64,000 nt of DNA from NCBI RefSeq assembly GCF_001677475.2, contig NZ_CP015229.1. One strand, 5' to 3'. Each line of letters begins with the position of its first letter. Position 1 is the stretch's first letter. Both the position numbers and the translations under genes were made by a program. Below the pieces are notes generated by a model. It ran no database searches and was not told the DNA's origin. It saw nothing but the letters and a program-made list of their open reading frames with translations. Below, piece after piece: positions 7,756 through 63,696 of the stretch. The DNA is from Escherichia coli. GTDB taxonomy: Bacteria > Pseudomonadota > Gammaproteobacteria > Enterobacterales > Enterobacteriaceae.

Positions 7756-7780
7756 GGCAACCCTGTAATCCATAACAACG

Positions 7781-7820
7781 ACTAAAATAGTTAAAATAAG
7801 GGAGGACAAGCCCCCCCTTT
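7781..7820 (-). terminator. Intra-operon hairpin (GGGGGG/CCUCCC stem, U-rich tail) between the pilin and usher genes; possible attenuator
   Basis: Minus-strand transcript ggggggg-cttgtc-ctccctt followed by auuuuaacuauuuu; position matches pilin/usher attenuators seen in other chaperone-usher operons. Confidence 0.4.
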
Positions 7821-7846
7821 ATTACGTATTAATTCTGTTATCCGGA

Positions 7847-8347: not shown

Positions 8348-8376
8348 TACTATTCCTTCGTTTATGACAATGATAA

Positions 8377-9093: not shown

Positions 9094-9342
9094 ATAGAAT
9101 TGATCTTACAAAATTGTTTCAAAAAAGTTAGTGCATTAGAAATGTAGATTTATTGTAAGTCAATATAAAAAATCATTTTTAGTTAATATTAATTTAAAAA
9201 GCGAAAAATTAAGTTACTGAAACATAGTAATTTTCACAATAGCGACGCTTAATTTTTAGGAATTTATAAATATTCACAATGTTAATTAAATACATTATTT
9301 CAATCACCATATTTATATATGAACAATGGCATACCCATAAAT
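9094..9342 (-). promoter_or_regulatory. Strongly AT-rich leader/promoter region of the fimbrial operon
   Basis: About 250 bp of very low GC with A/T tracts immediately upstream of the chaperone start; exact promoter elements not assigned. Confidence 0.4.
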
Positions 9343-19377: not shown

Positions 19378-19404
19378 ATTAAAAACCTTAAAATTTCAGG
19401 TAAA

Positions 19405-20736: not shown

Positions 20737-20960
20737 AATTTCTCGCTCAATATTTTGTAGGGCTTATTATTTTTTTCCGAGCCGCATCAAGGCGATATGC
20801 GGTCTACGTTTTTGCAGGCGAGTTATTAGAATAAAGAAATGATACGCGCGAGGTCAGAGAAAATCTTCACAATCAAGACTTTGAAATAACGGAGATGGAT
20901 AAGAATTTTCTACTAAATTAATCGCAAGAGAATATTCATTCTCTATTTGCGGCAGATCAC

Positions 20961-20986
20961 AAAAAAAAGGTGCACATTTGTGCACC
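20961..20986 (-). terminator. Intrinsic terminator of the tdc operon (after tdcG)
   Basis: Minus-strand hairpin ggtgcacaaatgtgcacc followed by an 8 nt U-run. Confidence 0.8.
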
Positions 20987-21010
20987 CAAGGATGAAAGCT
21001 GACAGCAATG

Positions 21011-22375
21011 TCAGCCGCAGACCACTTTAATGGCCAGTCCTCCGCGTGATGTTTCGCGGTATTTATCGTTCATATCTTTGCCGGTTTCATACATCGTCTC
21101 GATCACTTTATCGAGTGAAACACGCGGTGCCGAGGTGCGGCGCATCGCCATCCGCGCGGCGTTTACTGCTTTCACGGCATTAATGGCATTACGTTCAATG
21201 CACGGGATTTGTACCTGTCCAGCAACCGGATCGCAGGTCAGCCCAAGGTTATGCTCCATCGCGATTTCCGCCGCATTGCATACCTGCGCCGGACTGCCGC
21301 CCAGTAGTTCAGTTAACCCTGCCGCCGCCATTGAACAGGCCACGCCAATCTCCCCCTGACAGCCGACCTCCGCGCCAGAGATGGAGGCGTTCATTTTATA
21401 CAGCGCGCCAATAGCCCCGGCTGCAAGAAAATAGCGGGCAATTGACCGCTCGTTTACCGGGCGACGGAACTTATCGTAATAAGCCAGCACTGCCGGAATA
21501 ATGCCGCACGCACCGTTAGTCGGTGCCGTTACCACACGCCCGCCAGCTGCGTTTTCTTCACTAACCGCCAGCGCGTACATATTGATCCAGTCGATGACAT
21601 TCATCGGATCGTTAGAGATGTTATCGCTGGAAACCAGCTGACGACGCAGCGCTACGGCACGACGCGGCACATTGAGCGGACCAGGCAGCACGCCTTCAGT
21701 GTTCATCCCGCGTTCAATACCGTCATGCATCACTTGCCAGATACGGGCAAACCCTGCGTCAATTTCCGCTTTGCTGCGCAGCGCCAGCTCGTTGTGCATC
21801 ATCAGGCCAGATATAGACAGGCCGTTGTAATCACACATTTTCAGCAGTTCACCTGCTGAGTGGAAATCGTAAGGTACGGACGTTTCGACATCGTGCGACA
21901 GGCCGAAGTGTTCTTCTTCGACAATAAACCCGCCGCCGACAGAGTAATAGGTTTTACTTAATAGCGCTTCCTGTCCCTTCCAGGCAGTGATCCGCATTCC
22001 GTTCTCATGGCGAGGCAACATTTCGGGATGGAAGATAATGTTCTTTGCTACAGGAAAATCAACAATATGCGCACCAGATGCCACTGGCAGCCGCCCGCTG
22101 CGCGTTACTAACTCTATAAATGCAGGGATCTCATCAATGACAACATCCTGCGGACTGTTTCCTGCCAGTCCCATGATAATGGCGACATCCGTGGCATGGC
22201 CTTTGCCCGTCAGTGACAACGACCCGTACAGATCGACCACAATATGGCTCGTCGCGGTTAATAAGCCGCTACTTTCCAGCCGATCAATAAAACTTTTTCC
22301 GGCATTCATTGGCCCCACGGTATGCGAACTGGAGAGACCAATCCCAATTTTGAAAATATCGAATGCACTAATCAT
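21011..22375 (-). CDS. tdcG: L-serine dehydratase TdcG, 454 aa
   Basis: [39 protein letters not shown]...; Fe-S serine dehydratase family. Confidence 0.92.
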
Positions 22376-22446
22376 ATCCACACCCTCGGATTGCCGTTCA
22401 GTGAAGTGGAGCGGAACGACCTTGCGACCATCCCGCTCACGAGGCT

Positions 22447-22836
22447 TTACGCACTACGTACTGCGATGGCTTCAATTTCCAGCTTCACATCTTTCGGCAA
22501 ACGCGCGACCTGCACACAGCTCCGGGTCGGGTAGGTCGCCTGATGCTCATCGAAGAACTGCTTATAGACTTCATTGATGGTGGCAAAATCATTCAGATCG
22601 GTGATGAACACGGTCATCTTGATGATATCACCCACGCTCAGCCCGGCAGCAACCACGATCGCTTTGACGTTTTCGAGGCTTAAACGCGCCTGATCTTGCA
22701 CATCAGCCGGGATCTCACCGGTCTGTGGGCAAACCGGAATTTGCCCGGAGGTGAAGACCATGCTGCCTAAATCAACGCCCTGAACATAAGGGCCGATTGC
22801 GCCTGGGGCACGTTGCGTTTCGATAATCTTTTTCAT
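22447..22836 (-). CDS. tdcF: Enamine/imine deaminase TdcF (RidA family), 129 aa
   Basis: ORF 22447..22899; start at MKKIIETQRAPGAIGPYVQGVDLG. Confidence 0.92.
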   Translation of the reverse strand: MKKIIETQRAPGAIGPYVQGVDLGSMVFTSGQIPVCPQTGEIPADVQDQARLSLENVKAIVVAAGLSVGDIIKMTVFITDLNDFATINEVYKQFFDEHQATYPTRSCVQVARLPKDVKLEIEAIAVRSA

Positions 22837-22849
22837 ACATCCTCCGGCG

Positions 22850-25144
22850 TCAGAGCGCCTGGGTAAAGGTACGTGAAATAACATCCTGTTGCTGTTCACG
22901 GGTCAGTGCGTTGAAGCGCACGGCGTAGCCAGAGACACGGATTGTCAGGTTAGGATATTTTTCCGGGTGCTCGATGGCATCCAGCAGCATTTCCCGATTC
23001 ATTACGTTGACGTTGAGGTGTTGACCGCCTTCGACATCCGCTTCGTGGTGGAAATACCCATCCAGCAGGCCGACAAGGTTGGTTTTACGTACTGGATCTT
23101 CTTTGCCCAGCGCCGCAGGCACGATCGAGAAGGTGTACGAGATCCCGTCTTTGGCGTAGGTGAACGGCAGTTTGGCCACCGACGTCAGCGAGGCTACCGC
23201 ACCTTTGCGGTCACGACCGTGCATCGGGTTAGCGCCCGGTGCGAACGGTGTACCCGCGCGACGACCGTCTGGCGTGTTACCGGTTTTCTGGCCGTACACC
23301 ACGTTAGAAGTGATAGTCAGAATCGACTGGGTGGGGACGGCGTTGCGATAGGTTGGCAGCGCTTTAATTTTCTTCATAAAGCGTTCAACCAGGTCGCAGG
23401 CAATACTGTCTACGCGCTCGTCGTTGTTGCCGTACTGCGGATATTCGCCGTCGATTTCAAAGTCCACCGCCAGGCCGTTTTCGTCACGGATTGGTTTCAC
23501 GCGGGCATATTTGATAGCGGACAGGGAGTCTGTTGCCACCGACAGGCCCGCGATGCCGCACGCCATCGTGCGATAGACATCACGATCGTGTAGCGCCATC
23601 AGCGAAGCTTCGTAGCTGTACTTGTCGTGCATGTAGTGAATGATATTCAGCGCGCTGATGTACTGCACCGCCAGCCAGTCCATGAAGTGATCGAGACTGT
23701 CCATCACTTTGTCGTAATCCAGCACGTCGTCCATCAGCGGTGCCATTTTCGGACCGACCTGAATCTTCAGCTTCTCATCCACCCCGCCGTTAATTGCGTA
23801 CAGCAGCGTTTTCGCCAGGTTAGCGCGTGCACCAAAGAACTGCATTTGCTTACCAATCACCATTGGGCTGACGCAGCAGGCAATCGCGTAATCGTCGCTG
23901 TTGAAGTCAGTGCGCATCAGATCGTCGTTTTCATACTGCAAGGAAGAGGTGACGATCGACACCTGCGCGGCATATTTTTTGAAGGCAATCGGTAATTCTT
24001 CCGACCAAAGAATGGTCAGGTTAGGTTCCGGTGCAGGCCCCATAGTGTGCAGGGTGTGCAAATAGCGGAAGGAGTTTTTGGTCACCAGCGTACGACCGTC
24101 CAGCCCCATCCCGCCGATCACTTCCGTCGCCCAGATGGGGTCGCCGGAGAACAGCGAATCAAATTCCGGTGTACGCAGGAAGCGTACCATACGGATCTTC
24201 ATGATGAAGTGATCGATCAGTTCCTGTGCCTGCTGCTCATTGAGGACGCCAGCTTTAAAGTCGCGCTCAATGTAGATATCGAGGAACGATGCCGTGCGCC
24301 CCAGCGACATCGCGCCGCCATTTTGCGATTTCACTGCCGCCAGATAAGCGAAGTAGAGCCACTGCACCGCTTCCTGTGCATTCTGCGCCGGGCGAGAGAT
24401 ATCAAAGCCATATTTCGCCGCCATTTCCTGAATCTGCAACAGCGCATGACGATGCTCTGCCAGCTCCTCACGCAGACGGATGGTGGCTTCCAGATCCTCG
24501 CCTTTTTCCAGACGAGACTGGAGATCGGCAAATTGCAGTTCGCGTTCACGTACCAGATAACTGATGCCATACAGCGCTACGCGGCGATAGTCACCGATAA
24601 TGCGCCCACGGCCATAGCCATCTGGTAAACCGGTCAGCACGCCAGATTTACGGCAGCGCAGCATATCCGGTGAGTAAACATCAAATACACCCTGGTTATG
24701 GGTTTTACGCAGATCGGTAAACAGATATTCAAATTCACTGTCCATTTCACGGCCATAGGCGTGGAATGAACTTTTAATCATATTAATGCCACCGAACGGA
24801 TGCAGCGCACGCTTTAATGGCGCATCCGTTTGCAGGCCCACTATTTTTTCCAGCGGCTGGTTAATATATCCCGCATCATGAGCGGTAATGGTGGTAGCAA
24901 TATTAGTATCGAAATCAACCGGCGCGTGGGTTGCGTTTTCGATACGAATGCCTTCCATCACTTTTTCCCACAATTCCGTGGTGGCTGGCGTCGCTTCGGC
25001 GAGAAAAGATTCATCACCTTCATACGGTGTATAGTTATGTTGAATAAAATCGCGGACATTAATTTCGTTTTTCCAGTCCGTACCTTTAAAGCCAAGCCAT
25101 GCGTCGGCGTACAGCTTATCGCTGGTATCAATATCTACCTTCAT
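22850..25144 (-). CDS. tdcE: 2-ketobutyrate/pyruvate formate-lyase TdcE, 764 aa
   Basis: Glycyl-radical enzyme with C-terminal RVSGYAVRF motif; [21 protein letters not shown]... Confidence 0.93.
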
Positions 25145-25177
25145 GAAAAATAATCTCTCTACAATACTTCAACTAAA

Positions 25178-26386
25178 TTATGCAAATTCTGCGGGCGCGT
25201 TCACTTTGCCTAAATGAATGGCATCCAAAGCAATCATTTTTTCTTCGTTGGTTGGGATAACGGCGCAAATGACACGCGCATTTTCACTGGAAACAATTCG
25301 CTCTCCACAGGAGTTAGAGCGATTATTCATTTCTGTATCAATCTCTACGCCTAATACAGCCAAATGTTCCATGACCAGACGACGAATTAAACTTGAATTT
25401 TCTCCTATTCCGCCGGTGAATATAATTCCATCCAGGCGACGTAATGAGGCTGCGTGTCCGGCAATATGACGGGCAATTCGGTGAACAAAGGTTTTAATTG
25501 CCAGTTGCGCGCGTTCGTGACCTTCATGCCAGGCTTTTTCCAGAACACGTAAATCCGAAGAAAGACCGGAAATACCTAATAACCCCGACTCTTTATTCAC
25601 TACGCGTTCCAGGTCACCCAGGCTCTGGTTGGTTTGGCTGGCGACCCAGGACATCGCACCAAAGTCGACATCACCACTGCGGGTACCCATCATCAAGCCT
25701 TCCAGCGGCGTCATTCCCATTGAAGTGTCAACACTCTGACCGTTGCGAACTGCGCAGATTGACGCGCCATTGCCAAGATGCGCCACAACCAGGCCGGAGT
25801 CATCTTCCGCCAGATTCAGCAAAGAATGTGCGCGCTGGGAAACATAGCGGTGCGACGTGCCGTGGAAACCATAACGGCGTACACCTAACTCTTCATAATA
25901 TTTCCACGGCAGGCCGTATAAATAAGCTTCCGGAGCCATCGTCTGGTGGAAACTGGTATCAAATACCGCCACCTGAGTTACGCCAGGAAATAATTGCTGT
26001 GCCGATTCAATACCACTTAAATTGGCGTAATTATGCAGGGGTGCCAGTGGAGAAACGCGACGGATATTATCAATGACTTCATCGGTAATAATGGCAGACT
26101 CGGTAAAAATACTGCCGCCGTGAGCGATGCGGTGGCCAATTAAGGCCACACTGTCATTTAAATTCCGTTTTTCCAGTTCAAATGCAATTGCCTTCAATGC
26201 ACCTTCGTAGCTGTGGTGAGCCAGCGGTGCTGGCTCTCCCCCATTTACGGATAAGAATGCATTTTCCGAGTTAATACCGTCGGCAATACCTGACATTAAT
26301 ACTTCACAGTCGCTGGCATCGAGTACGGAAAACTTAATCGAAGACGAACCACAGTTAATAACCAAAACAACCGGAAATTCATTCAT
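25178..26386 (-). CDS. tdcD: Propionate/acetate kinase TdcD, 402 aa
   Basis: ORF 25178..26398; start at [23 protein letters not shown]. Confidence 0.92.
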
Positions 26387-26411
26387 CTCTTTTCTCATCC
26401 TGAGTTACGGA

Positions 26412-27746
<1,335 letters not shown>

Positions 27747-27764
27747 CTATCCTCAACGAATTAA

Positions 27765-28754
27765 TTAAGCGTCAACGAAACCGGTGATTTGAGAGACGCG
27801 AGAAAGATCGATATTGCCGCCGGAAATAATACTGACGGTTTTTCTGTTTTGAATATATTGGTCTAATTTACCGCTTAATAATGCAGCACATGCCAGAGCG
27901 CCTGCGCCTTCGGTGACGACTTTATTGCGCTGAATTAAGGCAATCATACTGTTTCTGATTTCGTCTTCGCTGACCAGCACGATGTCATCGACTAATTCAC
28001 GAACGATTTCGTAAGTTAAATTACCCGGGCGGGCGACATCACAACCATCCGCCAGGGTGCCGGTAGTTCGGTGCGTAGTTATTTCTCCGGAGTGGAAAGA
28101 AGCCGCCATGCCGTGAACGTTTTCTGACTGTACGCCAATAACACGAATGGTCGGGTTAATAGATTTAATTGCCACCGCAATACCAGCAATTAAACCGCCA
28201 CCACCAATTGGCACAATCACGTTATCGACATCATAGAGATCTTCCATAATTTCCAGACCAATCGTTCCCTGGCCAGCAATCACTTTCGGATCATCGTAAG
28301 GTGGGATAAAAATACGGCCTTCCATTTCGACAATTTCGCTCACTTTAGCGATAGTGTCGTTGAAGTTATCACCATGCAGAACGACTTCAGCGGAGTAGTC
28401 GCACGTTGCCGCTACTTTGGATTTTGGCGCACCTTTTGGCATCACCACTTTACCGTCGATACCCAGCATCGCGCAGGAGAGGGAAACCCCTTGCGCATGG
28501 TTGCCCGCAGAACAGGCCACCACGCCTTTGCGTTTTTCCGCATCGGTCAGTGAACTTAATTTATTAAATGCGCCACGAATTTTAAATGAACCCGTACGCT
28601 GCATATTTTCAAACTTCAGGAATATTTCACCTTTGCAACGTTCACTAAAATAGTTGGAGCGAGGCATGCCTGTTTTATAAATTCGCCCAGCCAGTCGTTG
28701 TTTCGCTTCAATAATGTCATCAATAGCAACCGGCAGATCGTATGTAATATGCAT
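27765..28754 (-). CDS. tdcB: Catabolic threonine dehydratase TdcB, 329 aa
   Basis: PLP-enzyme motif FKIRGAFNK; [29 protein letters not shown]... Confidence 0.93.
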
Positions 28755-28852
28755 TATAAAACCTCTTCGCCTGAATTAAATATGTAGGTAACCGTAACCG
28801 ACACCTGCAAAACAGACAGGTGGATTATTTATGTTTAAATAAAAACAAATAA

Positions 28853-29791
28853 CTAACCAACTTCTATTAATTGCCTTCGTCTACACCCATTATAAGATGA
28901 ATACTCTTTGGCTAATTCCACCAAAACCGATGCTGCTTTTTTAATACGATAATTTTTCGACCATACCGCGGCATATTGTGCCACAGGTAATGTTTCTTCA
29001 ACCGGAATAGTAATAAATTGATTAGAACCAAAAGGTGACGTCATATCACAAGGAATTACAGTTAAGAAATCAGCATTGAGAACAAGATTATAAATTGTCA
29101 CGACTGAGTCGGTTTTAACGATGTTTTCAATACTGATGCCATTTCTTTGTAACGTAGTAAGCAGTTCGCTGTAGTACCCCATATTAGTTTGTGGCAACAC
29201 CCACTGTTCGTTCTTCAACGACTCCAGCGTGGTGGTGCCGGTGCATGTTCGGGACTTACTGGCTACCAGTACAAACTCGGACTCAAACAGCGGCTCAACA
29301 TGTAAATCCTGAAGCTTCATTTCTGCACTTAACGTACCAATCGCAAAATCCAGTCGACCGTCGCGGATTGCCGGTAAGAACGAAGACAGTTGCGCTTCAT
29401 ACATAGAAACCTGCGCTTTCGGGAACACCTCTTTGAACTTGTTGATCATCCCTGACATAAAAGTAAAACCAATCAATGAAGGAAAACCAAATGAAACTTC
29501 CACCACCGCCTCAGAAGACATACCGCTTATCTCATTAACCATATTTTTCATTTCACGGGTAATGGATTCGGAACGGGAGAGTAACAATTGACCGGCATGT
29601 GTTAATGTTACACCGGTATTTTTCCGCACCACTAATTCCACACCAAAATAATCTTCAATATCGTTAATGATTTTACTGACGGCTGGTTGAGTTAACCCTA
29701 ATTCTTTTGCAGCCGAGCCGATAGAGCCACTTCTAATGACTTCCTGAAAGACTACCAGGTGCTGCGTTTTCGGAAGAAGAATAGTGCTCAT
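28853..29791 (-). CDS. tdcA: LysR-family activator TdcA, 312 aa
   Basis: MSTILLPKTQHLVVFQEVIRSGSIGSAAKELGLTQPAVSKIINDIEDYFG. Confidence 0.92.
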   Translation of the reverse strand: MSTILLPKTQHLVVFQEVIRSGSIGSAAKELGLTQPAVSKIINDIEDYFGVELVVRKNTGVTLTHAGQLLLSRSESITREMKNMVNEISGMSSEAVVEVSFGFPSLIGFTFMSGMINKFKEVFPKAQVSMYEAQLSSFLPAIRDGRLDFAIGTLSAEMKLQDLHVEPLFESEFVLVASKSRTCTGTTTLESLKNEQWVLPQTNMGYYSELLTTLQRNGISIENIVKTDSVVTIYNLVLNADFLTVIPCDMTSPFGSNQFITIPVEETLPVAQYAAVWSKNYRIKKAASVLVELAKEYSSYNGCRRRQLIEVG

Positions 29792-30105: not shown

Positions 30106-30324
30106 ATGAGCAAGTTCTCAAATTTTATTATAAATAAACCATTTTCAGCGATAAATAATGCGGCACGTCACATTTTTTCACGCTATTTGTTGGAGAACAA
30201 ACATTTATTTTATCAATATTTTAAAATTTCGAATACAGATATTGATCATCTCGAACAATTGATTAACGTCAACTTTTTCTCTTCTGACAGGACGTCATTT
30301 TGTGAATGCAATCGTTTTCCATAA
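30106..30324 (+). CDS. tdcR: Small regulator TdcR, 72 aa
   Basis: ORF 29968..30324; start at MSKFSNFIINKPFSAINNAARHIFSRYLLENKHL gives the 72 aa form; divergent from tdcA; start not certain. Confidence 0.65.
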   Translation: MSKFSNFIINKPFSAINNAARHIFSRYLLENKHLFYQYFKISNTDIDHLEQLINVNFFSSDRTSFCECNRFP

Positions 30325-32547: not shown

Positions 32548-32924
<377 letters not shown>

Positions 32925-43032: not shown

Positions 43033-43812
43033 ATGGAAATCAGTCTGTTGCAGGCATTCGCGTTGGGCATTATCGCCTTTATCGCTGGCCTGGATATGTT
43101 TAACGGCCTAACCCATATGCACCGCCCGGTGGTCCTCGGCCCGTTGGTCGGGCTGGTACTTGGCGATCTGCATACCGGTATTTTAACCGGCGGTACGCTG
43201 GAACTGGTGTGGATGGGGCTGGCCCCGCTGGCAGGCGCACAGCCGCCTAACGTGATTATCGGTACTATCGTCGGCACGGCGTTTGCCATTACTACCGGCG
43301 TGAAACCCGATGTCGCGGTCGGTGTCGCCGTACCTTTCGCTGTCGCAGTACAGATGGGGATTACCTTCCTGTTCTCGGTGATGTCTGGCGTAATGTCCCG
43401 CTGCGACCGGATGGCGGAGAACGCCGATACACGCGGCATTGAACGCGTGAACTATCTGGCACTGCTGGCACTCGGCACTTTCTATTTTCTCTGCGCTTTC
43501 CTGCCTATCTACTTCGGCGCAGAACATGCCAAAACCATCATTGATGTCCTACCGCAACGATTAATCGACGGCCTCGGCGTCGCGGGCGGCATCATGCCAG
43601 CAATCGGTTTTGCCGTACTGCTGAAAATCATGATGAAAAACGTCTACATCCCCTACTTCATCCTGGGCTTTGTTGCCGCAGCCTGGCTCAAGTTACCGGT
43701 GCTGGCTATTGCTGCCGCCGCGCTGGCGATGGCGCTGATCGACCTGCTGCGTAAATCTCCTGAACCGACTCAACCTGCGGCACAGAAAGAGGAATTTGAA
43801 GATGGCATCTAA
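43033..43812 (+). CDS. agaW: N-acetylgalactosamine PTS IIC component AgaW, full length 259 aa
   Basis: MEISLLQAFALGIIAFIAGLDMFNG...; intact here, truncated in K-12 as recalled. Confidence 0.88.
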   Translation: MEISLLQAFALGIIAFIAGLDMFNGLTHMHRPVVLGPLVGLVLGDLHTGILTGGTLELVWMGLAPLAGAQPPNVIIGTIVGTAFAITTGVKPDVAVGVAVPFAVAVQMGITFLFSVMSGVMSRCDRMAENADTRGIERVNYLALLALGTFYFLCAFLPIYFGAEHAKTIIDVLPQRLIDGLGVAGGIMPAIGFAVLLKIMMKNVYIPYFILGFVAAAWLKLPVLAIAAAALAMALIDLLRKSPEPTQPAAQKEEFEDGI

Positions 43813-44680
43813 TCAAACCACCCTGCCGAACGTCAGTGAAAACGAAGAAACACTGCTGACAGGCGTCAATGAAAACGTGTATGAAGATCAGAGCATTGGC
43901 GCAGAGCTGACGAAAAAAGATATCAACCGCGTCGCCTGGCGTTCCATGCTGTTACAAGCGTCTTTTAACTACGAGCGTATGCAGGCTTCCGGCTGGTTGT
44001 ACGGTCTGCTGCCTGCTCTGAAAAAGATCCACACTAATAAACGCGACCTGGCGCGCGCCATGAAGGGGCATATGGGTTTCTTCAATACCCATCCGTTTCT
44101 GGTGACGTTTGTTATCGGCATTATCCTTGCGATGGAGCGTTCTAAGCAGGACGTTAACAGTATTCAGAGCACCAAAATTGCCGTCGGTGCGCCGCTCGGC
44201 GGGATTGGCGATGCGATGTTCTGGCTAACGCTACTGCCGATTTGTGGCGGGATAGGCGCAAGCCTCGCGCTACAAGGCTCTATTCTTGGCGCAGTCGTCT
44301 TTATTGTGCTGTTCAACGTGGTACACCTGGGGCTGCGTTTTGGTCTGGCGCATTATGCTTACCGCATGGGCGTGGCGGCGATTCCACTCATTAAAGCGAA
44401 TACCAAAAAAGTCGGCCATGCTGCGTCAATCGTTGGGATGACGGTAATCGGCGCGCTGGTGGCAACCTATGTTCGTTTAAGCACCACGCTGGAAATCACC
44501 GCTGGCGACGCAGTGGTTAAGTTACAGGCTGATGTTATCGACAAACTGATGCCTGCCTTCTTACCGCTGGTCTACACCCTGACCATGTTCTGGCTGGTAC
44601 GCCGCGGCTGGAGTCCGCTGCGCCTGATTGCAGTTACCGTGGTACTCGGCATCGTCGGTAAATTCTGTCATTTCCTTTAA
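43796..44680 (+). CDS. agaE: N-acetylgalactosamine PTS IID component AgaE, 294 aa
   Basis: Mannose-family IID profile; MKMASNQTTLPNVSENEETLLTGVNENVYEDQSIGAELTKKDINRVAWRS. Confidence 0.85.
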   Translation: MKMASNQTTLPNVSENEETLLTGVNENVYEDQSIGAELTKKDINRVAWRSMLLQASFNYERMQASGWLYGLLPALKKIHTNKRDLARAMKGHMGFFNTHPFLVTFVIGIILAMERSKQDVNSIQSTKIAVGAPLGGIGDAMFWLTLLPICGGIGASLALQGSILGAVVFIVLFNVVHLGLRFGLAHYAYRMGVAAIPLIKANTKKVGHAASIVGMTVIGALVATYVRLSTTLEITAGDAVVKLQADVIDKLMPAFLPLVYTLTMFWLVRRGWSPLRLIAVTVVLGIVGKFCHFL

Positions 44681-44697
44681 ATACAATGAGGTATTAG

Positions 44698-45132
44698 ATG
44701 TTAAGTATTATTTTGACAGGGCATGGCGGATTTGCCAGCGGCATGGAAAAAGCAATGAAGCAAATCCTCGGCGAGCAATCGCAGTTTATCGCCATCGATT
44801 TTCCGGAAACCTCAAGCACCGCGCTGCTTACATCGCAGCTTGAAGAGGCCATCGCCCAACTGGATTGTGAAGACGGCATTGTTTTTCTGACGGATTTGCT
44901 GGGCGGCACGCCGTTTCGCGTAGCTTCAACGCTGGCGATGCAAAAACCGGGCTGTGAAGTGATCACCGGCACCAATTTGCAACTGCTACTGGAGATGGTG
45001 CTGGAGCGCGAAGGGTTAAGCGGTGAAGAGTTCCGTGTGCAGGCGCTTGAGTGTGGACACCGTGGGCTGACCAGTCTGGTAGATGAGTTAGGCCGCTGCC
45101 ATGAAGAATGTCCGGTCGAGGAAGGAATATGA
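44698..45132 (+). CDS. agaF: N-acetylgalactosamine PTS IIA component AgaF, 144 aa
   Basis: MLSIILTGHGGFASGMEKAMKQILGEQ (mannose-family IIA). Confidence 0.85.
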   Translation: MLSIILTGHGGFASGMEKAMKQILGEQSQFIAIDFPETSSTALLTSQLEEAIAQLDCEDGIVFLTDLLGGTPFRVASTLAMQKPGCEVITGTNLQLLLEMVLEREGLSGEEFRVQALECGHRGLTSLVDELGRCHEECPVEEGI

Positions 45133-46262
45133 CACCCGTTTTGCGCGCCAGAAGGCTGCTGACTGAAGAGGGATGGCTCGATGACCATCAGTTGCGTATT
45201 GCTGACGGTGTAATCGCAGCAATCGAACCGATTCCAGTGGGCGTGACTGAACGCGATGCGGAACTGCTCTGCCCCGCTTACATCGACACCCATGTACACG
45301 GTGGTGCGGGCGTTGATGTAATGGATGACGCGCCGGATGTGCTCGACAAGCTGGCAATGCACAAAGCACGCGAAGGTGTCGGCAGTTGGTTACCGACCAC
45401 CGTAACCGCGCCGCTTAATACCATTCATGCGGCGCTGGAACGTATTGCTCAACGTTGCCAACGCGGCGGACCTGGTGCGCAAGTGCTGGGGAGTTATCTC
45501 GAAGGACCGTACTTCACGCCGCAGAATAAAGGTGCGCATCCGCCGGAGCTGTTCCGCGAGCTGGAAATTGCCGAGCTGGATCAATTGATTGCCGTTTCTC
45601 AGCACACCTTGCGCGTGGTGGCGCTGGCACCGGAAAAAGAAGGGGCATTGCAGGCCATCCGCCATCTTAAACAGCAAAACGTACGGGTGATGCTGGGGCA
45701 TAGCGCGGCGACCTGGCAACAAACCCGTGCCGCGTTTGACGCTGGTGCCGACGGCCTGGTGCATTGCTATAACGGGATGACAGGTTTACATCACCGCGAA
45801 CCGGGAATGGTTGGCGCGGGATTAACGGACAAGCGCGCCTGGCTGGAACTGATAGCCGATGGTCATCATGTGCATCCGGCGGCGATGTCGCTGTGTTGTT
45901 GCTGTGCGAAAGAGAGAATCGTGCTCATCACCGACGCGATGCAGGCAGCAGGGATGCCGGATGGTCGCTATACGTTATGTGGTGAAGAAGTGCAGATGCA
46001 CGGTGGCGTTGTCCGTACCGCGTCCGGTGGGCTGGCGGGCAGTACGCTGTCTGTCGATGCGGCAGTGCGCAACATGGTCGAGTTGACGGGCGTAACGCCT
46101 GCGGAAGCCATCCATATGGCGTCGCTGCATCCGGCGCGTATGCTGGGTGTTGATGATGTTCTGGGATCGCTTAAACCGGGCAAACGCGCCAGCGTCGTTG
46201 CGCTGGATAGCGGGCTGCATGTGCAACAAATCTGGATTCAGGGTCAATTAGCTTCGTTTTGA
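45129..46262 (+). CDS. agaA: N-acetylgalactosamine-6-phosphate deacetylase AgaA, 377 aa, full length
   Basis: ORF 45108..46262; start at MTPVLRARRLLTEEGWLDDHQLRIADG; NagA-like metal-binding HVHGG motif. Confidence 0.88.
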   Translation: MTPVLRARRLLTEEGWLDDHQLRIADGVIAAIEPIPVGVTERDAELLCPAYIDTHVHGGAGVDVMDDAPDVLDKLAMHKAREGVGSWLPTTVTAPLNTIHAALERIAQRCQRGGPGAQVLGSYLEGPYFTPQNKGAHPPELFRELEIAELDQLIAVSQHTLRVVALAPEKEGALQAIRHLKQQNVRVMLGHSAATWQQTRAAFDAGADGLVHCYNGMTGLHHREPGMVGAGLTDKRAWLELIADGHHVHPAAMSLCCCCAKERIVLITDAMQAAGMPDGRYTLCGEEVQMHGGVVRTASGGLAGSTLSVDAAVRNMVELTGVTPAEAIHMASLHPARMLGVDDVLGSLKPGKRASVVALDSGLHVQQIWIQGQLASF

Positions 46263-50905: not shown

Positions 50906-51673
50906 ATGGAACGAGGCACTGCTTCTGGCGGTGCCTCTTTACTTAAGGAATTTCATCCTGTGCAAACCCTTCAGCAAGTTGAAAACTATACGGCGTTAAG
51001 TGAACGTGCCAGCGAATATTTATTGGCCGTGATCCGTAGCAAACCGGATGCCGTGATTTGCCTGGCGACCGGAGCCACGCCATTACTGACGTATCATTAT
51101 CTGGTAGAAAAAATCCACCAGCAGCAGGTTGATGTCAGCCAACTAACCTTCGTCAAGCTCGACGAATGGGTGGATCTGCCATTAACTATGCCTGGCACCT
51201 GCGAAACTTTCCTGCAACAGCATATCGTGCAGCCGCTGGGGCTACGTGAAGACCAGCTCATCAGCTTTCGCTCCGAAGAGATAAATGAGACAGAGTGCGA
51301 ACGGGTAACGAACCTGATTGCGCGCAAAGGCGGTCTGGATTTATGCGTTCTCGGATTGGGGAAAAACGGTCATCTTGGGCTGAACGAACCGGGAGAAAAC
51401 CTGCAACCGACCTGCCATATCAGTCAACTTGATGCCAGAACACAGCAACATGAGATGTTAAAAACCGCGGGCCGTCCCGTGACTCGTGGGATCACCTTAG
51501 GCCTGAAGGATATTCTCAATGCCCGCGAAGTTTTGTTACTGGTGACTGGCGAAGGAAAGCAGGATGCGACAGAACGTTTTCTCACGGCTAAAGTCTCCAC
51601 CGCTATCCCGGCTTCGTTTTTATGGCTGCATAACTATTTCACATGCATGATTGATGAGATGTGTCGTCGTTAA
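50906..51673 (+). CDS. agaI: Putative galactosamine-6-phosphate deaminase/isomerase AgaI (NagB-like), 255 aa
   Basis: ATG directly follows the agaD stop; MERGTASGGASLLKEFHPVQTLQQVENYTALSERASEYLLAV. Confidence 0.88.
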   Translation: MERGTASGGASLLKEFHPVQTLQQVENYTALSERASEYLLAVIRSKPDAVICLATGATPLLTYHYLVEKIHQQQVDVSQLTFVKLDEWVDLPLTMPGTCETFLQQHIVQPLGLREDQLISFRSEEINETECERVTNLIARKGGLDLCVLGLGKNGHLGLNEPGENLQPTCHISQLDARTQQHEMLKTAGRPVTRGITLGLKDILNAREVLLLVTGEGKQDATERFLTAKVSTAIPASFLWLHNYFTCMIDEMCRR

Positions 51674-51675
51674 CT

Positions 51676-51719
51676 CGCCTGCTACAGGCGTTGCAACGCT
51701 ATTCCTGCTGCGACGCCTG
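51676..51719. terminator. Inverted repeat between convergent agaI and rsmI (possible bidirectional terminator)
   Basis: acaggcgt ... acgcctgt 8 bp arms with a long loop; weak as a classic terminator. Confidence 0.3.
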
Positions 51720-51722
51720 TAA

Positions 51723-52586
51723 TCACTCTCCCTGCTGCTCCAGTGCATACTTATACAGCGCATTTTTCTTCACGCCGTGAATTTCTGCGGCCAGCGCCGC
51801 CGCTTTTTTCAGCGGCAGTTCTGCCTGTAGCAGCGCCAGCGTGCGCAGGGCATCGGCGGGTAAGTCTTCTTCCTGTGCTTTATGGCCTTCGACAATCAGT
51901 ACCATTTCGCCTTTGCGACGGTTTTCATCTTCTTTGACCCACGCCAGCAGCTCGCCAACGGGCGCGCCGTGAATGGTTTCCCAGGTTTTGGTCAGCTCAC
52001 GCGCCAGAACGACGTAGCGGGATTCGCCTAATACCGCAACGATATCTTCCAGGCTATCTAACAGACGGTGGGTAGATTCATAAAAAATCAGCGTGCGCGG
52101 CTCCGCTTCAATGGCTTTTAGCGCATCACGGCGGCCTTTTGATTTGGCAGGTAAAAAGCCTTCATAACAAAAACGATCGGATGGTAAACCCGCGGCGCTT
52201 AACGCAGTGATAGCAGCACACGGCCCGGGTAGCGGCACCACGAGAATCCCCGCTTCACGGCAGGTACGCACCAGATGGTAGCCAGGATCGTTAATTAGCG
52301 GCGTTCCGGCATCGGAAACCAGCGCAATGTTTTGCCCCTCTTGCAGCTTCGCCAGCAGCGTTTCGGCTTTTTGTTGTTCGTTATGGTCGTGCAGCGCAAA
52401 CAACCGAGCATTAATCCCAAAATGTTGCAGCAATAAACCGGTGTGACGCGTATCCTCGGCGGCAATCAGATCAACGGCCTGTAATACCTCCAACGCACGC
52501 TGGGTGATATCCGCCAGATTGCCGATTGGCGTCGGTACAATGTAAAGCTGGCCCTGAGAATTATCCGCCGATTGGTGTTGTTTCAT
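51723..52586 (-). CDS. rsmI: 16S rRNA C1402 2'-O-methyltransferase RsmI, 287 aa
   Basis: [48 protein letters not shown]. Confidence 0.92.
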
Positions 52587-59206: not shown

Positions 59207-59509
59207 ATGACACCCTGGTTTCTTTACTTGATCCGTACCGCCGATAATAAGCTTTATACCGGGATCACCACAGATGTCGAACGCCGCTATCAGCAGCACC
59301 AAAGCGGCAAAGGGGCGAAAGCACTGCGCGGGAAAGGAGAACTAACGCTGGCGTTTTCCGCGCCAGTGGGCGATCGTTCGCTGGCGTTACGGGCAGAATA
59401 TCGCGTTAAGCAACTGACCAAACGGCAAAAAGAACGTCTGGTAGCGGAAGGCGCAGGGTTTGCAGAACTGTTGAGCAGCCTACAAACCCCAAAGATTAAA
59501 AGCGATTGA
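59207..59509 (+). CDS. yhbQ: GIY-YIG domain protein YhbQ, 100 aa
   Basis: [31 protein letters not shown] (GIY-YIG motif). Confidence 0.9.
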
Positions 59510-59999
59510 AGTGCTCGTGATACTCAACCAGACCGGTTACGCCGTTCAGCGCGTCATCCGCTAAACGATGTACCTGGAAGGCGCTTTCAGTGCCCGGCCA
59601 GCGGCAACGCAGATCGTGATGCGCCGCCAGCTCAAAGCCGAAACGACTGTACAGCGCCGGATCGCCCAGCGTCACCACTGCGGCATAGCCGAACTCATTA
59701 AGCGAATCGAGTCCTTCATAGACCAGTTGGCGTGCCAGCCCCTGTCCACGGTATTTTTCATCAACCGCCAACGGTGCCATGCCGACCCATTGCAGGTCTT
59801 CGCCCTGCACATCAACCGGACTAAATGCCACATAGCCAATGACCTGACCTTCGTCATCTGTCGCCACCAGCCCCAGCGTCAGAAAGCCATCTTCACGCAG
59901 ATCGTGAACCAGCTTCGCTTCCGCATCGCTTTCGAATGAACGACGCAGCAGGGCATCAATACCCGGCGCATCAATGGGAATTTCTACTCGAATTAGCAT
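59496..59999 (-). CDS. yhbS: GNAT-family acetyltransferase YhbS, 167 aa
   Basis: [36 protein letters not shown]...; acetyl-CoA motif [10 protein letters not shown]. Confidence 0.9.
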
Positions 60000-60517
60000 G
60001 GTTCACCTACCGATGTCTGTTTGGTTTCAGGCGCGGTTTTCATTCCCGCCTCAACAAAATCCGCCAGTTGCAGCAGCATCATGCGTAAGGCTTTCGGCAT
60101 TTGCTCCAGTTCAATGGCGTCCATCAGGTTTTTCACATACAGCCCCAGCTCCGTATCGCCTTCAATCACCAGCCGACGCTGGAAGAAGAGCGTATCCGGA
60201 TCTTGTTTACGCGCCGCAATCATCAGCAGATCGCTGGCGTCGGCACTAAAACTCACATCAGCTTGCGCGTTCTGGCTAACGACCAGTTTGCCATTCACCA
60301 CCGAGGTAAACCATTGCAGGTCAATATCACGCACATGAATACTTAACCAGCGGCCTTCAAGAAACTCCAGCTCGCCATCATCCAGCGCCTGACGGAATTG
60401 CCAGCTTAAGACCTGCTCAAGAACCTGGCGTTTTAGCGCAAATGGCGTCAGTTTTACCGGTACACTCAACAGAGATGGCCCCAAATGCACAATACGGGAA
60501 CGCAGTTTATCCAACAC
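59993..60517 (-). CDS. ubiT: SCP2-domain protein UbiT (YhbT), about 174 aa
   Basis: ORF 59993..60541 begins at a TTG; preferred start is the GTG giving MLDKLRSRIVHLGPSLLSVPVKL; start uncertain. Confidence 0.82.
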   Translation of the reverse strand: MLDKLRSRIVHLGPSLLSVPVKLTPFALKRQVLEQVLSWQFRQALDDGELEFLEGRWLSIHVRDIDLQWFTSVVNGKLVVSQNAQADVSFSADASDLLMIAARKQDPDTLFFQRRLVIEGDTELGLYVKNLMDAIELEQMPKALRMMLLQLADFVEAGMKTAPETKQTSVGEPC

Positions 60518-60725
60518 GAGTTTTACTCCCTGTTTCAACAATCATCCTATTTTGCCATATCAGAAAAATAACATAGCGGTATAAATCAACAATTCCATAT
60601 GAAATTGCTGCTACCACCAATACAACTTTAACTGCCTTAAATCAAAAATTGTCGCAGCAAGGTTAACTAAAATCCCAGTTCGTTAACATTTTTGCGTTTT
60701 GATAGCGCAACCTTCAGGAAAAATT

Positions 60726-61721
60726 ATGGAGCTGCTCTGCCCTGCCGGAAATCTCCCGGCGCTTAAGGCGGCCATCGAAAACGGCGCAGATGCTGTTTAT
60801 ATCGGGCTAAAAGATGATACCAATGCCCGTCACTTCGCCGGCCTTAACTTTACCGAGAAAAAATTGCAGGAAGCGGTGAGTTTTGTCCATCAACATCGCC
60901 GCAAACTTCACATCGCGATTAACACTTTTGCGCATCCGGACGGTTACGCCCGTTGGCAGCGCGCCGTGGATATGGCGGCGCAGCTGGGTGCCGACGCGCT
61001 GATCCTCGCCGACCTCGCCATGCTGGAGTACGCCGCCGAGCGTTACCCGCATATTGAGCGTCATGTGTCAGTGCAGGCTTCGGCGACCAATGAAGAGGCG
61101 ATTAACTTTTATCATCGCCATTTTGATGTTGCCCGCGTGGTGCTGCCGCGCGTGTTGTCGATTCATCAGGTGAAACAGCTGGCACGGGTCACACCTGTAC
61201 CACTGGAAGTCTTTGCTTTTGGCAGCCTGTGCATTATGTCGGAAGGCCGTTGCTATCTGTCGTCGTATCTGACAGGTGAGTCGCCCAACACCGTGGGTGC
61301 GTGTTCTCCGGCCCGTTTCGTGCGCTGGCAGCAAACGCCGCAGGGGCTGGAATCTCGCCTGAACGAAGTACTGATCGACCGTTATCAGGATGGCGAAAAC
61401 GCAGGTTATCCGACGCTGTGTAAAGGGCGTTATCTGGTGGACGGCGAGCGCTATCACGCGCTGGAAGAACCCACCAGTCTCAATACCCTGGAACTGCTGC
61501 CGGAGTTAATGGCAGCGAATATTGCTTCGGTGAAAATTGAAGGCCGCCAGCGTAGCCCGGCGTATGTCAGCCAGGTGGCGAAAGTCTGGCGTCAGGCTAT
61601 CGACCGTTGTAAGGCCGATCCGCAAAACTTCATACCGCAAAGCGCGTGGATGGAGACGCTCGGGTCGATGTCCGAAGGCACGCAGACCACCCTTGGCGCG
61701 TATCACCGTAAATGGCAGTGA
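60726..61721 (+). CDS. ubiU: U32-peptidase-family protein UbiU (YhbU), 331 aa
   Basis: ORF 60699..61721; start at MELLCPAGNLPALKAAIENGADAVYIGL. Confidence 0.9.
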   Translation: MELLCPAGNLPALKAAIENGADAVYIGLKDDTNARHFAGLNFTEKKLQEAVSFVHQHRRKLHIAINTFAHPDGYARWQRAVDMAAQLGADALILADLAMLEYAAERYPHIERHVSVQASATNEEAINFYHRHFDVARVVLPRVLSIHQVKQLARVTPVPLEVFAFGSLCIMSEGRCYLSSYLTGESPNTVGACSPARFVRWQQTPQGLESRLNEVLIDRYQDGENAGYPTLCKGRYLVDGERYHALEEPTSLNTLELLPELMAANIASVKIEGRQRSPAYVSQVAKVWRQAIDRCKADPQNFIPQSAWMETLGSMSEGTQTTLGAYHRKWQ

Positions 61722-61729
61722 GAAAAGCA

Positions 61730-62608
61730 ATGAAATATTCCTTAGGGCCAGTGCTGTGGTACTGGCCAAAAGAGACGCTGGAAGAATTTTATCAGCAGGC
61801 CGCCGCCAGCAGCGCCGACGTGATTTATCTTGGTGAAGCGGTATGCAGCAAGCGCCGGGCAACCAAAGTTGGCGACTGGCTGGAGATGGCAAAATCACTC
61901 GCCGGAAGTGGTAAGCAGATTGTGCTCTCCACGCTGGCGCTGGTGCAGGCATCCTCTGAACTGGGCGAACTGAAACGCTATGTTGAGAACGGTGAGTTTC
62001 TGATTGAAGCCAGCGATCTCGGCGTGGTGAATATGTGCGCTGAACGCAAACTGCCGTTCGTCGCCGGGCACGCGCTGAACTGCTACAACGCGGTGACACT
62101 GAAAATATTGCTCAAACAGGGCATGATGCGCTGGTGTATGCCGGTGGAGCTTTCCCGCGACTGGTTGGTGAATCTGCTTAATCAGTGCGATGAGCTGGGC
62201 ATTCGCAACCAGTTTGAAGTGGAAGTCCTGAGCTACGGTCATCTGCCGCTGGCCTACTCCGCCCGCTGCTTTACCGCGCGTTCGGAAGACCGCCCGAAAG
62301 ATGAGTGTGAAACCTGCTGCATTAAGTATCCGAACGGGCGCAACGTGCTGTCGCAGGAAAACCAACAAGTGTTTGTACTCAATGGCATTCAGACCATGAG
62401 CGGCTACGTTTACAACCTCGGTAACGAGCTGGCATCCATGCAGGGATTGGTTGATGTGGTCCGCCTGTCACCGCAGGGTACTGACACTTTCGCGATGCTC
62501 GACGCCTTCCGCGCTAATGAAAATGGCGCGGCACCACTGCCGTTGACGGTAAACAGCGATTGTAACGGCTACTGGCGGCGGCTGGCCGGGCTGGAGCTGC
62601 AAGCGTAA
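61730..62608 (+). CDS. ubiV: U32-peptidase-family protein UbiV (YhbV), 292 aa
   Basis: ORF 61712..62608; start at MKYSLGPVLWYWPKETLEEFYQQAAASSADVIYLGEAVC. Confidence 0.9.
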   Translation: MKYSLGPVLWYWPKETLEEFYQQAAASSADVIYLGEAVCSKRRATKVGDWLEMAKSLAGSGKQIVLSTLALVQASSELGELKRYVENGEFLIEASDLGVVNMCAERKLPFVAGHALNCYNAVTLKILLKQGMMRWCMPVELSRDWLVNLLNQCDELGIRNQFEVEVLSYGHLPLAYSARCFTARSEDRPKDECETCCIKYPNGRNVLSQENQQVFVLNGIQTMSGYVYNLGNELASMQGLVDVVRLSPQGTDTFAMLDAFRANENGAAPLPLTVNSDCNGYWRRLAGLELQA

Positions 62609-62688
62609 GTAAATAGCTCACTTTGTTAACAACTTTAACTACTCTTTAATGCAGTATTAAAGATTAATCGGTAACAAAGTGAGCTGTT

Positions 62689-63696
62689 ATGACTGATAAA
62701 ACCATTCCGTTTTCGCTACTCGATCTGGCCCCTATTCCCGAAGGTTCTTCAGCGCGAGAAGCGTTCTCCCACTCTCTCGACCTCGCCCGTCTGGCTGAAA
62801 AGCGCGGCTATCATCGCTACTGGCTGGCTGAACACCACAATATGACCGGTATTGCCAGTGCTGCAACATCAGTATTGATTGGCTATCTGGCGGCGAATAC
62901 CACTACGCTGCATCTGGGGTCCGGCGGCGTGATGTTACCAAACCACTCACCGTTGGTGATCGCCGAACAGTTCGGCACGCTCAATACGCTCTATCCGGGG
63001 CGAATCGATTTGGGGCTGGGCCGTGCTCCGGGTAGTGACCAGCGAACCATGATGGCTCTACGTCGTCATATGAGCGGCGATATTGATAATTTCCCCCGCG
63101 ATGTCGCGGAGCTGGTGGACTGGTTTGACGCCCGCGATCCCAATCCGCATGTGCGCCCGGTACCGGGCTATGGCGAGAAAATCCCCGTGTGGTTGTTAGG
63201 CTCCAGCCTTTACAGCGCGCAACTTGCGGCGCAGCTTGGTCTGCCGTTTGCGTTTGCCTCACACTTCGCGCCGGATATGTTGTTCCAGGCGCTGCATCTT
63301 TATCGCAGCAACTTCAAACCGTCGGCACGGCTGGAAAAACCGTATGCGATGGTGTGCATCAATATTATCGCCGCCGACAGCAACCGCGACGCTGAATTTC
63401 TCTTTACCTCAATGCAGCAAGCCTTTGTGAAGCTGCGCCGTGGCGAAACCGGGCAACTACCGCCGCCGATTCAAAATATGGATCAGTTCTGGTCACCGTC
63501 CGAGCAGTATGGCGTGCAGCAGGCGCTGAGTATGTCGCTGGTGGGTGATAAAGCGAAAGTGCGTCATGGCTTGCAGTCGATCCTGCGCGAAACCGACGCC
63601 GATGAGATTATGGTTAACGGGCAGATTTTCGATCACCAGGCACGCCTGCATTCGTTTGAACTGGCGATGGATGTTAAGGAAGAGTTGTTGGGATAG
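62689..63696 (+). CDS. yhbW: Luciferase-like monooxygenase family protein YhbW, 335 aa
   Basis: [51 protein letters not shown]. Confidence 0.9.

Follow-up and report, generated by a model that had tools for sequence, protein, structure and literature searches.

The divergent gene cluster near the end of the stretch of Escherichia coli DNA analysed here (64,000 nucleotides, hereafter the window) is almost certainly the ubiT(-yhbS)/ubiU-ubiV locus, which encodes the O2-independent branch of ubiquinone-8 biosynthesis and is controlled by FNR from the region between the divergent genes. The cluster is already characterised in E. coli, the K-12 locus having been described before (Pelosi 2019, PMC6747719; Arias-Cartin 2023, PMC10470549; Kazemzadeh Ferizhendi 2024, PMC10990095), and nothing new is added to it here. 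Gene identities, cysteine ligands, the presence of the FNR sites F1 and F2, identity to K-12, and the cross-species conservation of the sites and their spacing to the -10 elements were computed in this study. FNR dependence, anaerobic induction, the heterodimer with its clusters and the prephenate donor are taken from published experiments on identical sequence.

Gene content and conservation of the ubiT/ubiUV locus

On the minus strand, ubiT (yhbT, 59993..60517) encodes a 174 aa protein with an SCP2 domain, an accessory factor in the anaerobic synthesis of ubiquinone, and has a GTG start codon and a GGGAG Shine-Dalgarno sequence at 60526..60530. It is followed by yhbS (hqbA, 59496..59999, minus strand), a GNAT acetyltransferase gene that comes second in the ubiT transcription unit and whose first 7 nt (ATGCTAA) overlap the end of ubiT. 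On the plus strand, ubiU (yhbU, 60726..61721) encodes a 331 aa subunit of the O2-independent hydroxylase and ubiV (yhbV, 61730..62608), which begins 8 nt after the ubiU stop, encodes its 292 aa partner; both are 4Fe-4S proteins of the U32 family. The open reading frame positions given for ubiT, ubiU and ubiV in the original prediction were exact.

Pfam searches detected an SCP2 domain in ubiT (E = 7.9e-20) and Peptidase_U32 in ubiU (E = 1.6e-67) and ubiV (E = 1.2e-9). All three products passed the corresponding NCBIfam equivalog models, namely NF047962 (SCP2_dom_UbiT, 153.6 bits against a cutoff of 46.9), NF047963 for UbiU (560 bits against 440, residues 1-331 aligning with profile positions 1-331) and NF047965 for UbiV (362.3 bits against 275). 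The eight 4Fe-4S cysteine ligands of UbiU and UbiV were defined by Pelosi 2019 (PMC6747719), and all are present: four of four in UbiU (C169, C176, C193 and C232, CX6CX16CX38C) and four of four in UbiV (C39, C180, C193 and C197, CXnCX12CX3C). The original prediction of an O2-independent UbiT/UbiU/UbiV hydroxylation module with a shared divergent control region is thus upheld, both by the equivalog models and by publication for identical sequence.

All but two of 5426 complete E. coli genomes (5424) contain the 3.4 kb ubiTUV segment, annotated ubiT/ubiU/ubiV. Compared with K-12 ubiT (b3157) and ubiU-ubiV (b3158-b3159), genes, order and orientation are all shared, F1, F2, both -10 elements and all Fe-S cysteines are alike, and only allelic differences separate the two loci. 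The control region matches that of K-12 MG1655 without a single difference in 208 bp (100% identical). UbiT is identical to the K-12 protein, the gene differing by 1 nt, and nucleotide identity is 97.4% for ubiU and 98.1% for ubiV. Two residues differ in UbiU (V190I and I303V) and two in UbiV (A26T and V274A), with the window residue given first and the K-12 residue second. Judged from gene order in other species, the ubiT/ubiUV arrangement is no chance juxtaposition. Among 110 UbiU-encoding loci of other species, ubiV lies directly 3' of ubiU in all 87 that were testable, and ubiT is a divergent neighbour in 80 of the 110, with a further 11 showing a divergent ubiT about 2.4 kb away. Similarly, yhbS is the next gene 3' of ubiT at 59 of the 72 loci of other species where this could be tested.

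For the K-12 proteins, a UbiU-UbiV heterodimer performing prephenate-dependent, O2-independent hydroxylation has been published (PMC6747719, PMC10990095), with the oxygen of anaerobic ubiquinone (UQ) hydroxylation donated by prephenate (PMC10990095); the published basis for the catalytic role of UbiUV is genetics and isotope labelling. Binding of lipid or UQ intermediates by UbiT, and its need for anaerobic UQ8, have been published for the identical K-12 protein and the P. aeruginosa homologue (PMC6747719). Co-transcription of yhbS with ubiT has been demonstrated by RT-PCR; yhbS has no role in UQ synthesis and has been published as the Hfq regulator HqbA. By this scheme, UbiU and UbiV of the window would form a heterodimer in which each subunit holds one 4Fe-4S cluster through four cysteines. 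The pair would be required anaerobically for the three ring hydroxylations carried out by UbiI, UbiH and UbiF with O2, prephenate would supply the oxygen atoms, and UbiT would act as the SCP2 lipid-binding accessory factor, the proposed anoxic counterpart of UbiJ.

FNR sites and promoters in the divergent control region

The divergent control region, which separates the start codon of ubiT from that of ubiU (60518..60725), spans 208 bp rather than the 180 bp originally reported. It had been proposed that an FNR motif scan of this interval would test the module, the lack of an FNR site counting against it. With the consensus TTGAT-N4-ATCAA, a strict scan allowing up to two mismatches returned no matches in 60518..60725, yet two experimentally validated sites with three mismatches do lie there. 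F1 (60632..60645, minus strand; TTGATTTAAGGCAG on the minus strand and CTGCCTTAAATCAA on the plus strand) activates the ubiUV promoter, ubiUVp, and F2 (60576..60589, TTGATTTATACCGC on the minus strand) activates ubiTp2. Both match seven of ten consensus positions with one perfect half-site each, no other 14-mer of the control region comes within three mismatches of the consensus, and the exact sequence of each occurs once in the window. Taking the absence of an FNR site as a refutation is unsafe and would have misled; we reject the strict scan as a valid test because the validated F1 and F2 have three mismatches. A consensus-only search misleads at this locus, since both functional sites carry three mismatches and a single consensus half, and it would wrongly refute a proven case of FNR control.

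The motif alone is not decisive at relaxed thresholds either, FNR-like sites of the quality of F1 and F2 (7/10) occurring at 5.3 per kb across the window and sites with one perfect half and up to three mismatches at 1.1 per kb. Conservation and spacing to the -10 element are far better identifiers of FNR sites here than match score. In a sample of 73 orthologous intergenic regions from other species, an F1-like site (NTG-N6-ATCAA) was present in 68, against approximately 2.3 in shuffled sequences. A TAnnnT hexamer lies exactly 22 nt past this site in 62 of the 68 loci, and every other offset from 14 to 30 was seen in zero to two loci. F2 is kept as TTGAT-N4-nCCGC across the Enterobacteriaceae, Serratia, Rahnella and Edwardsiella, and TGGCA(A/G)AAT is found at the same offset from it in most F2-bearing Enterobacterales loci.

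In the window, the -10 hexamer of ubiUVp (TAAAAT, 60668..60673, plus strand) lies 22 nt after F1, and transcription probably starts at about 60680..60682. F1 has its centre 29.5 bp upstream of where this hexamer begins, which corresponds to -41.5. The FNR-dependent ubiTp2 has an extended -10 element (TGgCAAAAT, 60549..60557, minus strand) 21 nt after F2 in the direction of ubiT, with a probable start near 60542, which places the F2 centre at about -40.5. Class II FNR-activated promoters have an FNR site centred near -41.5, and both F1 and F2 fit this class in position and in their FNR dependence. Unlike class II FNR promoters, however, F1 and F2 each contain one consensus half only, the other half being conserved across orders. 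The spacings agree with the published mapped starts, with F1 36 nt upstream of the ubiUV start and F2 33 nt upstream of ubiTp2 (Arias-Cartin 2023, PMC10470549).

FNR-dependent anaerobic induction has been published for the identical 208-bp sequence (PMC10470549). In K-12, point mutations in F1 (mutF1) abolish UbiV production without O2, and mutF2 and deltaF2 remove the anaerobic induction of UbiT with its basal level kept (PMC10470549). Neither UbiU nor UbiV is present in aerobic cells or, on western blots, in delta-fnr, and anaerobic delta-fnr cells contain almost no UQ8 (PMC10470549). A second laboratory found UbiT induced roughly 35-fold anaerobically in an FNR-dependent, ArcA-independent manner. 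Furthermore, yhbT/yhbU is named in both genome-wide FNR binding studies (ChIP-chip and ChIP-seq), and the F1 sequence is the ChIP-chip site called for yhbT/yhbU. Under anoxia, FNR on the weak F1 (about -41.5 from ubiUVp) would switch on ubiUV and FNR on the weak F2 (about -40.5 from ubiTp2) would boost ubiT-yhbS, with a distal FNR-independent promoter, ubiTp1, expected to provide basal UbiT in air.

Generic searches added little to the locus. A sigma-70 scan missed both ubiUVp and ubiTp2, its sole match (9/12) being at 60699..60727 and running into the ubiU start codon. A terminator scan gave five matches where 5.7 were expected, neither ubiV nor yhbS being followed by one, and an Rfam scan of the whole window at gathering thresholds found rnpB only and nothing at the ubiT/ubiUV locus. 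Separately, a conserved hairpin is present between ubiV and yhbW, upstream of yhbW; its arms are essentially invariant and so give no covariation evidence for or against it.

Conservation of the control region is not confined to the consensus half of each FNR site. In both F1 and F2 the non-consensus half is also kept from Escherichia to the Vibrionaceae or Serratia, with CTGCC of F1 retained in 51 of 68 loci and nCCGC of F2 likewise conserved, and GGTTAAC and TCGTTAACA blocks flank the -10 element and start of ubiUVp, conserved where the nearby spacer varies. The E. albertii control region is also more conserved than the flanking genes (98.1% identical, against 93.5% for ubiT and 94.6% for ubiU). 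Such a pattern would be in keeping with a second factor that binds the region besides FNR, which we consider unlikely. To our knowledge, the GTTAAC blocks bear no convincing resemblance to ArcA, NarL, IHF or IscR motifs, and the conserved blocks could be assigned to no known motif. UbiT is unaffected by ArcA, and induction is abolished by point mutations in F1 and F2 alone (PMC10470549). Part of the conservation may moreover come from overlapping core promoter elements such as those of ubiTp1. In the ubiT orientation, 17 bp separate the TTGATT consensus half of F1 from a conserved TATTGG/TATTGA block, so this half may also serve as the -35 element of ubiTp1, the constitutive promoter. We regard it as doubtful that the control region carries information beyond the two FNR boxes already published. 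If it did, this would mean a tuned low affinity for FNR, an FNR-driven switch from promoter p1 to p2 and/or a second regulator of anaerobic ubiquinone synthesis.

The cyuPA and tdc operons in the same window

The original prediction also grouped ubiTUV with cyuPA and tdc as a plausible co-regulated anaerobic neighbourhood. The coordinates on which this drew were right, cyuA-cyuP and tdcG to tdcA occupying 18067..29791 on the minus strand, but the neighbourhood itself was not supported: 30.2 kb and about 35 unrelated genes lie between, and FNR sites are not enriched. A larger anaerobic island of ubiTUV, cyuPA and tdcABCDEFG would be in keeping with the presence of the three units in one 64-kb window and with the anaerobic expression of all three, which for cyuPA and tdc is established knowledge. 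A site of the FNR ChIP-chip target 'yhaB' (TTGATTAACGTCAA, 30259..30272) also lies beside tdcR. Nevertheless, co-regulation as an island is very improbable. The window contains 41 FNR-like sites with up to two mismatches, against 35.5 +/- 5.4 expected, and neither tdc nor yhaO/yhaM is named in the main text of the two genome-wide FNR binding studies. The units are transcribed from separate promoters, the intervening genes include rnpB, gar, prlF-yhaV, aga, rsmI, lpoA, diaA and dolP, and both spacing and intervening content vary among strains, with indels of 2.3 to 5.5 kb.

Related U32 proteins and the aerobic pathway

The U32 family includes proteins of other functions, and two further readings of ubiU and ubiV were rejected on model scores. 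That they are U32 peptidases or collagenases with no link to quinone synthesis, as the Pfam family of both genes, the RefSeq name still given to ubiV ('U32 family peptidase') and its 439.7 bits on the generic PRK15447 model might suggest, has next to no probability given that both proteins pass their equivalog models and carry the Fe-S cysteine ligands, and that published genetics and spectroscopy identify them as Fe-S proteins needed for anaerobic UQ hydroxylation (PMC6747719, PMC10990095). It is just as improbable that they are paralogues hydroxylating RNA (TrhP- or RlhA-like) and not quinones: prephenate-dependent RNA hydroxylases do exist in the family (PMC10990095) and ubiU partially matches the TrhP model, but at 165.3 bits it is far under the cutoff of 534, against 560 over a cutoff of 440 for UbiU, and the conserved pairing with ubiV and a divergent SCP2 gene is the UbiTUV signature.

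Beyond the K-12 locus, these RNA-modifying enzymes and the aerobic hydroxylases are among the nearest known systems to UbiU and UbiV. TrhP (tRNA ho5U) and RlhA (23S rRNA ho5C) share with UbiUV the U32 fold and an O2-independent, prephenate-linked hydroxylation, whereas their substrates are RNAs and they lack an SCP2 partner. With prephenate as an organic source of oxygen, the locus opens O2-independent ubiquinone synthesis to facultative anaerobes, and it supports respiration with nitrate, pyrimidine synthesis under anaerobic conditions and the transition from anoxia to oxic conditions. The aerobic system of UbiI, UbiH and UbiF with UbiJ carries out the same three ring hydroxylations on the UQ precursor and likewise has an SCP2 accessory protein. 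UbiI, UbiH and UbiF are, however, flavin monooxygenases that use O2, whereas UbiUV are 4Fe-4S proteins of the U32 family, take oxygen that derives from prephenate and are produced only when O2 is low or absent.

The ubiT and ubiU-ubiV genes

The divergence of ubiT from ubiU-ubiV was confirmed by ORFs and by concordant Pfam and NCBIfam equivalog matches, and the predicted gene coordinates are exact according to the ORF list and sequence. The ubiT gene (59993..60517, minus strand, 174 aa) has its annotated GTG start at 60515..60517, with GGGAG ahead of it; the mechanical ORF reaches further, to a TTG at 60541. On the plus strand, ubiU (60726..61721, 331 aa) and ubiV (61730..62608, 292 aa) are separated by 8 nt. 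The control region between the start codons, 60518..60725, measures 208 bp rather than the 180 bp first proposed. Pfam detected SCP2 in ubiT and Peptidase_U32 in both ubiU and ubiV, and the equivalog models scored 153.6 bits for UbiT (cutoff 46.9), 560 bits for UbiU (cutoff 440) and 362.3 bits for UbiV (cutoff 275). All published 4Fe-4S cysteine ligands (8/8) are in place, namely C169/C176/C193/C232 of UbiU and C39/C180/C193/C197 of UbiV (PMC6747719). Relative to MG1655, the intergenic region is unchanged over all 208 bp, ubiT has one changed nucleotide and an identical protein, and UbiU and UbiV have two amino acid differences each. The equivalog scores, cysteines and near-identity to K-12 support the original prediction of an O2-independent ubiquinone module.

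Of 5426 complete E. coli genomes, 5424 carry the 3.4-kb ubiTUV stretch, annotated as ubiT/ubiU/ubiV; just 27/5424 match 59400..62800 at ≥99% identity. Divergence from K-12 is patchy over 59496..63696, at 0–0.2% in the intergenic region and ubiT versus 1.9–4.2% in ubiU, ubiV and yhbW, a pattern that points to a recombination boundary close to where ubiU starts, to the control region being under strong constraint, or to both. Identity to E. albertii is 98.1% in the intergenic region against 93.5% in ubiT and 94.6% in ubiU, which is consistent with dense regulatory content.

FNR sites in the control region

The whole window was scanned for TTGAT-N4-ATCAA with up to two mismatches and compared with shuffles; FNR-like matches were not enriched (41 versus 35.5 ± 5.4), and there were none in 60518..60725. 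The original prediction had named the lack of an FNR site and of anaerobic induction as grounds for its refutation, and at this threshold no site is found, yet the strict scan would mislead because two validated sites, F1 and F2, lie in the region; the test is therefore unsafe. F1, TTGATTTAAGGCAG, precedes the ubiUV transcription start by 36 nt, and F2, TTGATTTATACCGC, lies 33 nt upstream of ubiTp2, the proximal FNR-dependent ubiT promoter, and 19 nt downstream of the distal ubiTp1 (Arias-Cartin et al. 2023, PMC10470549). Both match the window exactly, in one copy and reading on the minus strand (F1, 60632..60645; F2, 60576..60589). Each combines a perfect half-site with another half carrying three mismatches, and they are the only 14-mers in the control region within three mismatches of the FNR consensus. 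Sites of this quality occur window-wide at 5.3 per kb (1.1 per kb when one half must be perfect), hence motif score by itself is weak evidence.

The decisive support for FNR control comes from published experiments, and those on the K-12 control region apply directly to the window sequence, since the two regions are identical. Five-nucleotide mutations of F1 abolished anoxic UbiV production, F2 mutations removed the anaerobic induction of UbiT and kept its basal level, UbiU and UbiV were undetectable in air and likewise in a delta-fnr strain, and anaerobic UQ8 was nearly nil in the latter (PMC10470549). The yhbT/yhbU site from FNR ChIP-chip is exactly the F1 sequence (PMC1802558), and yhbUV is on the FNR ChIP-seq list (PMC3688515). 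A second laboratory found UbiT anaerobic induction of ~35-fold, dependent on FNR and independent of ArcA (PMC10710024).

Conservation of the locus and its promoters

Searching a one-genome-per-species collection with a degenerate DNA pattern for the UbiU N-terminus gave 120 loci, 110 of which encode true UbiU; these are related species, hence the locus counts are not independent events. In all testable loci (87/87) ubiV directly follows ubiU, and ubiT is adjoining and divergent in 80 of the 110. In 11 more (Vibrionaceae and Plesiomonas) ubiT is divergent but ~2.4 kb away. Here a 685-aa PAS-PAS-GGDEF-EAL gene (c-di-GMP turnover), encoded on the ubiU strand, separates ubiT from ubiU (2167..4224, minus, in locus L025, and in 10 other Vibrionaceae/Plesiomonas loci), and might connect c-di-GMP with redox or O2 sensing and with anaerobic UQ synthesis. 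The GNAT gene yhbS (hqbA; 59496..59999, minus strand), with a 7-nt overlap at the ubiT stop, comes immediately after ubiT in 59 of the 72 testable loci (L005-L124), Vibrionaceae included. It is co-transcribed with ubiT and its product regulates RNA binding by Hfq (PMC10710024); the linkage is conserved despite its published lack of a role in UQ synthesis.

Among 73 cleanly delimited intergenic regions, 68 carry an F1-like NTG-N6-ATCAA on the ubiU strand, versus a mean of 2.3 and maximum of 7 in dinucleotide shuffles. A TAnnnT hexamer (TAAAAT, TACACT, TAGAAT etc.) follows exactly 22 nt downstream in 62/68; each of the remaining offsets between 14 and 30 has it in 0–2 loci. The distance between the site centre and the first -10 base is thus 29.5 bp, equivalent to a centre at -41.5. 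In the window this places the ubiUVp -10, TAAAAT, at 60668..60673 and a probable start at ~60680..60682. F2 is kept as TTGAT-N4-nCCGC, with an extended -10 element, TGGCA(A/G)AAT (60549..60557, minus strand; probable ubiTp2 start ~60542), 21 nt beyond it, in Enterobacteriaceae, Serratia, Rahnella, Edwardsiella, Dickeya and Acerihabitans.

The non-consensus halves of F1 (CTGCC, 60632..60636; 51/68 loci) and F2 (GCGGT/nCCGC, 60576..60580) are also conserved, as are GGTTAAC (60661..60667) just 5' of the ubiUVp -10, TCGTTAACA (60680..60688) at ~+1 to +9 of ubiUVp, and CCAATA (60617..60622; TATTGG/TATTGA on the ubiT strand), 17 bp from the F1 half TTGATT. Spacer positions beside the sites vary freely in the same alignment, therefore the conservation is position-specific. 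These are minor residual details; with low probability they would carry regulatory content beyond F1 and F2, and TTGATT and CCAATA (TATTGG) may act as the -35 and -10 of ubiTp1.

The ubiV-yhbW gap (62609..62688) is 100% identical to K-12, against 95.8–98.1% for the flanking genes, and holds a nested hairpin with outer arms AGCTCACTTTGTTA (62615..62628) and TAACAAAGTGAGCT (62672..62685), inner arms TCTTTAAT and ATTAAAGA, and an RNA minimum free energy of -28.8 kcal/mol (z = -4.75). Its 3' arm spans the yhbW ribosome-binding region, 3 nt ahead of the ATG at 62689. Enterobacteriaceae keep the two arms even where the interior has gained ~65 nt (L068, L011, L089); no covariation was seen in the arms across the compared loci because they are invariant. 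The hairpin could serve as an anti-Shine-Dalgarno element or form a transcript end.

Genomic neighbourhood and published mechanism

A co-regulated anaerobic neighbourhood with cyuPA and tdc, also proposed originally, is not supported. The positions given for these operons are correct (cyuA, 18067..19377; cyuP, 19405..20736; tdcG..tdcA, 21011..29791), but they are 30.2 kb from ubiT, with ~35 unrelated genes in between (tdcR, yhaBC, rnpB, gar, prlF-yhaV, aga, rsmI, lpoA, yraN, diaA, dolP, yraQR and yhbOPQ), and FNR-like motifs lack enrichment. Gene content from tdc to ubiT varies among strains, and tdc and yhaO/yhaM are unmentioned in the main text of the FNR ChIP-chip (PMC1802558) and ChIP-seq (PMC3688515) studies. 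We find no evidence of co-regulation past each unit's own-promoter response to anoxia. A one-mismatch FNR box, TTGATTAACGTCAA, at 30259..30272, beside tdcR in the tdcR-yhaB interval, is the 'yhaB' FNR ChIP-chip target (PMC1802558).

The sole Rfam match in the window is rnpB (RNase P RNA, class A; 32548..32924, minus strand, 319.7 bits). Relative to K-12, the exuT-exuR interval has a 5.4-kb insertion (3958..9342) whose minus-strand genes make up a fimbrial operon of the CS1/Cbl (alternate chaperone-usher) type, with a CblD-like protein, TcfC-type usher, CS1 major subunit and PapD-like chaperone; the 5.5-kb yraHIJK fimbrial operon of K-12 is missing at ~51630..51730. The aga cluster is intact at 43408..45704, where K-12 has its known agaW-agaA deletion.

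All three hydroxylations of the O2-independent pathway need UbiU and UbiV (PMC6747719), with prephenate the source of the oxygen atoms (PMC10990095). The two proteins pair as a heterodimer, each binding one 4Fe-4S cluster, and UbiT is an SCP2 accessory factor, the putative anaerobic counterpart of UbiJ (PMC6747719). FNR bound at F1 switches on ubiUVp, and at F2 ubiTp2, with FNR-independent ubiTp1 making UbiT available in air, which matters for the anoxic-to-oxic shift. Class II FNR promoters have the site centre at -41.5, and the F1-ubiUVp spacing shows the same geometry. All elements of the ubiTUV finding were published before, so the locus represents a known system in its type organism.
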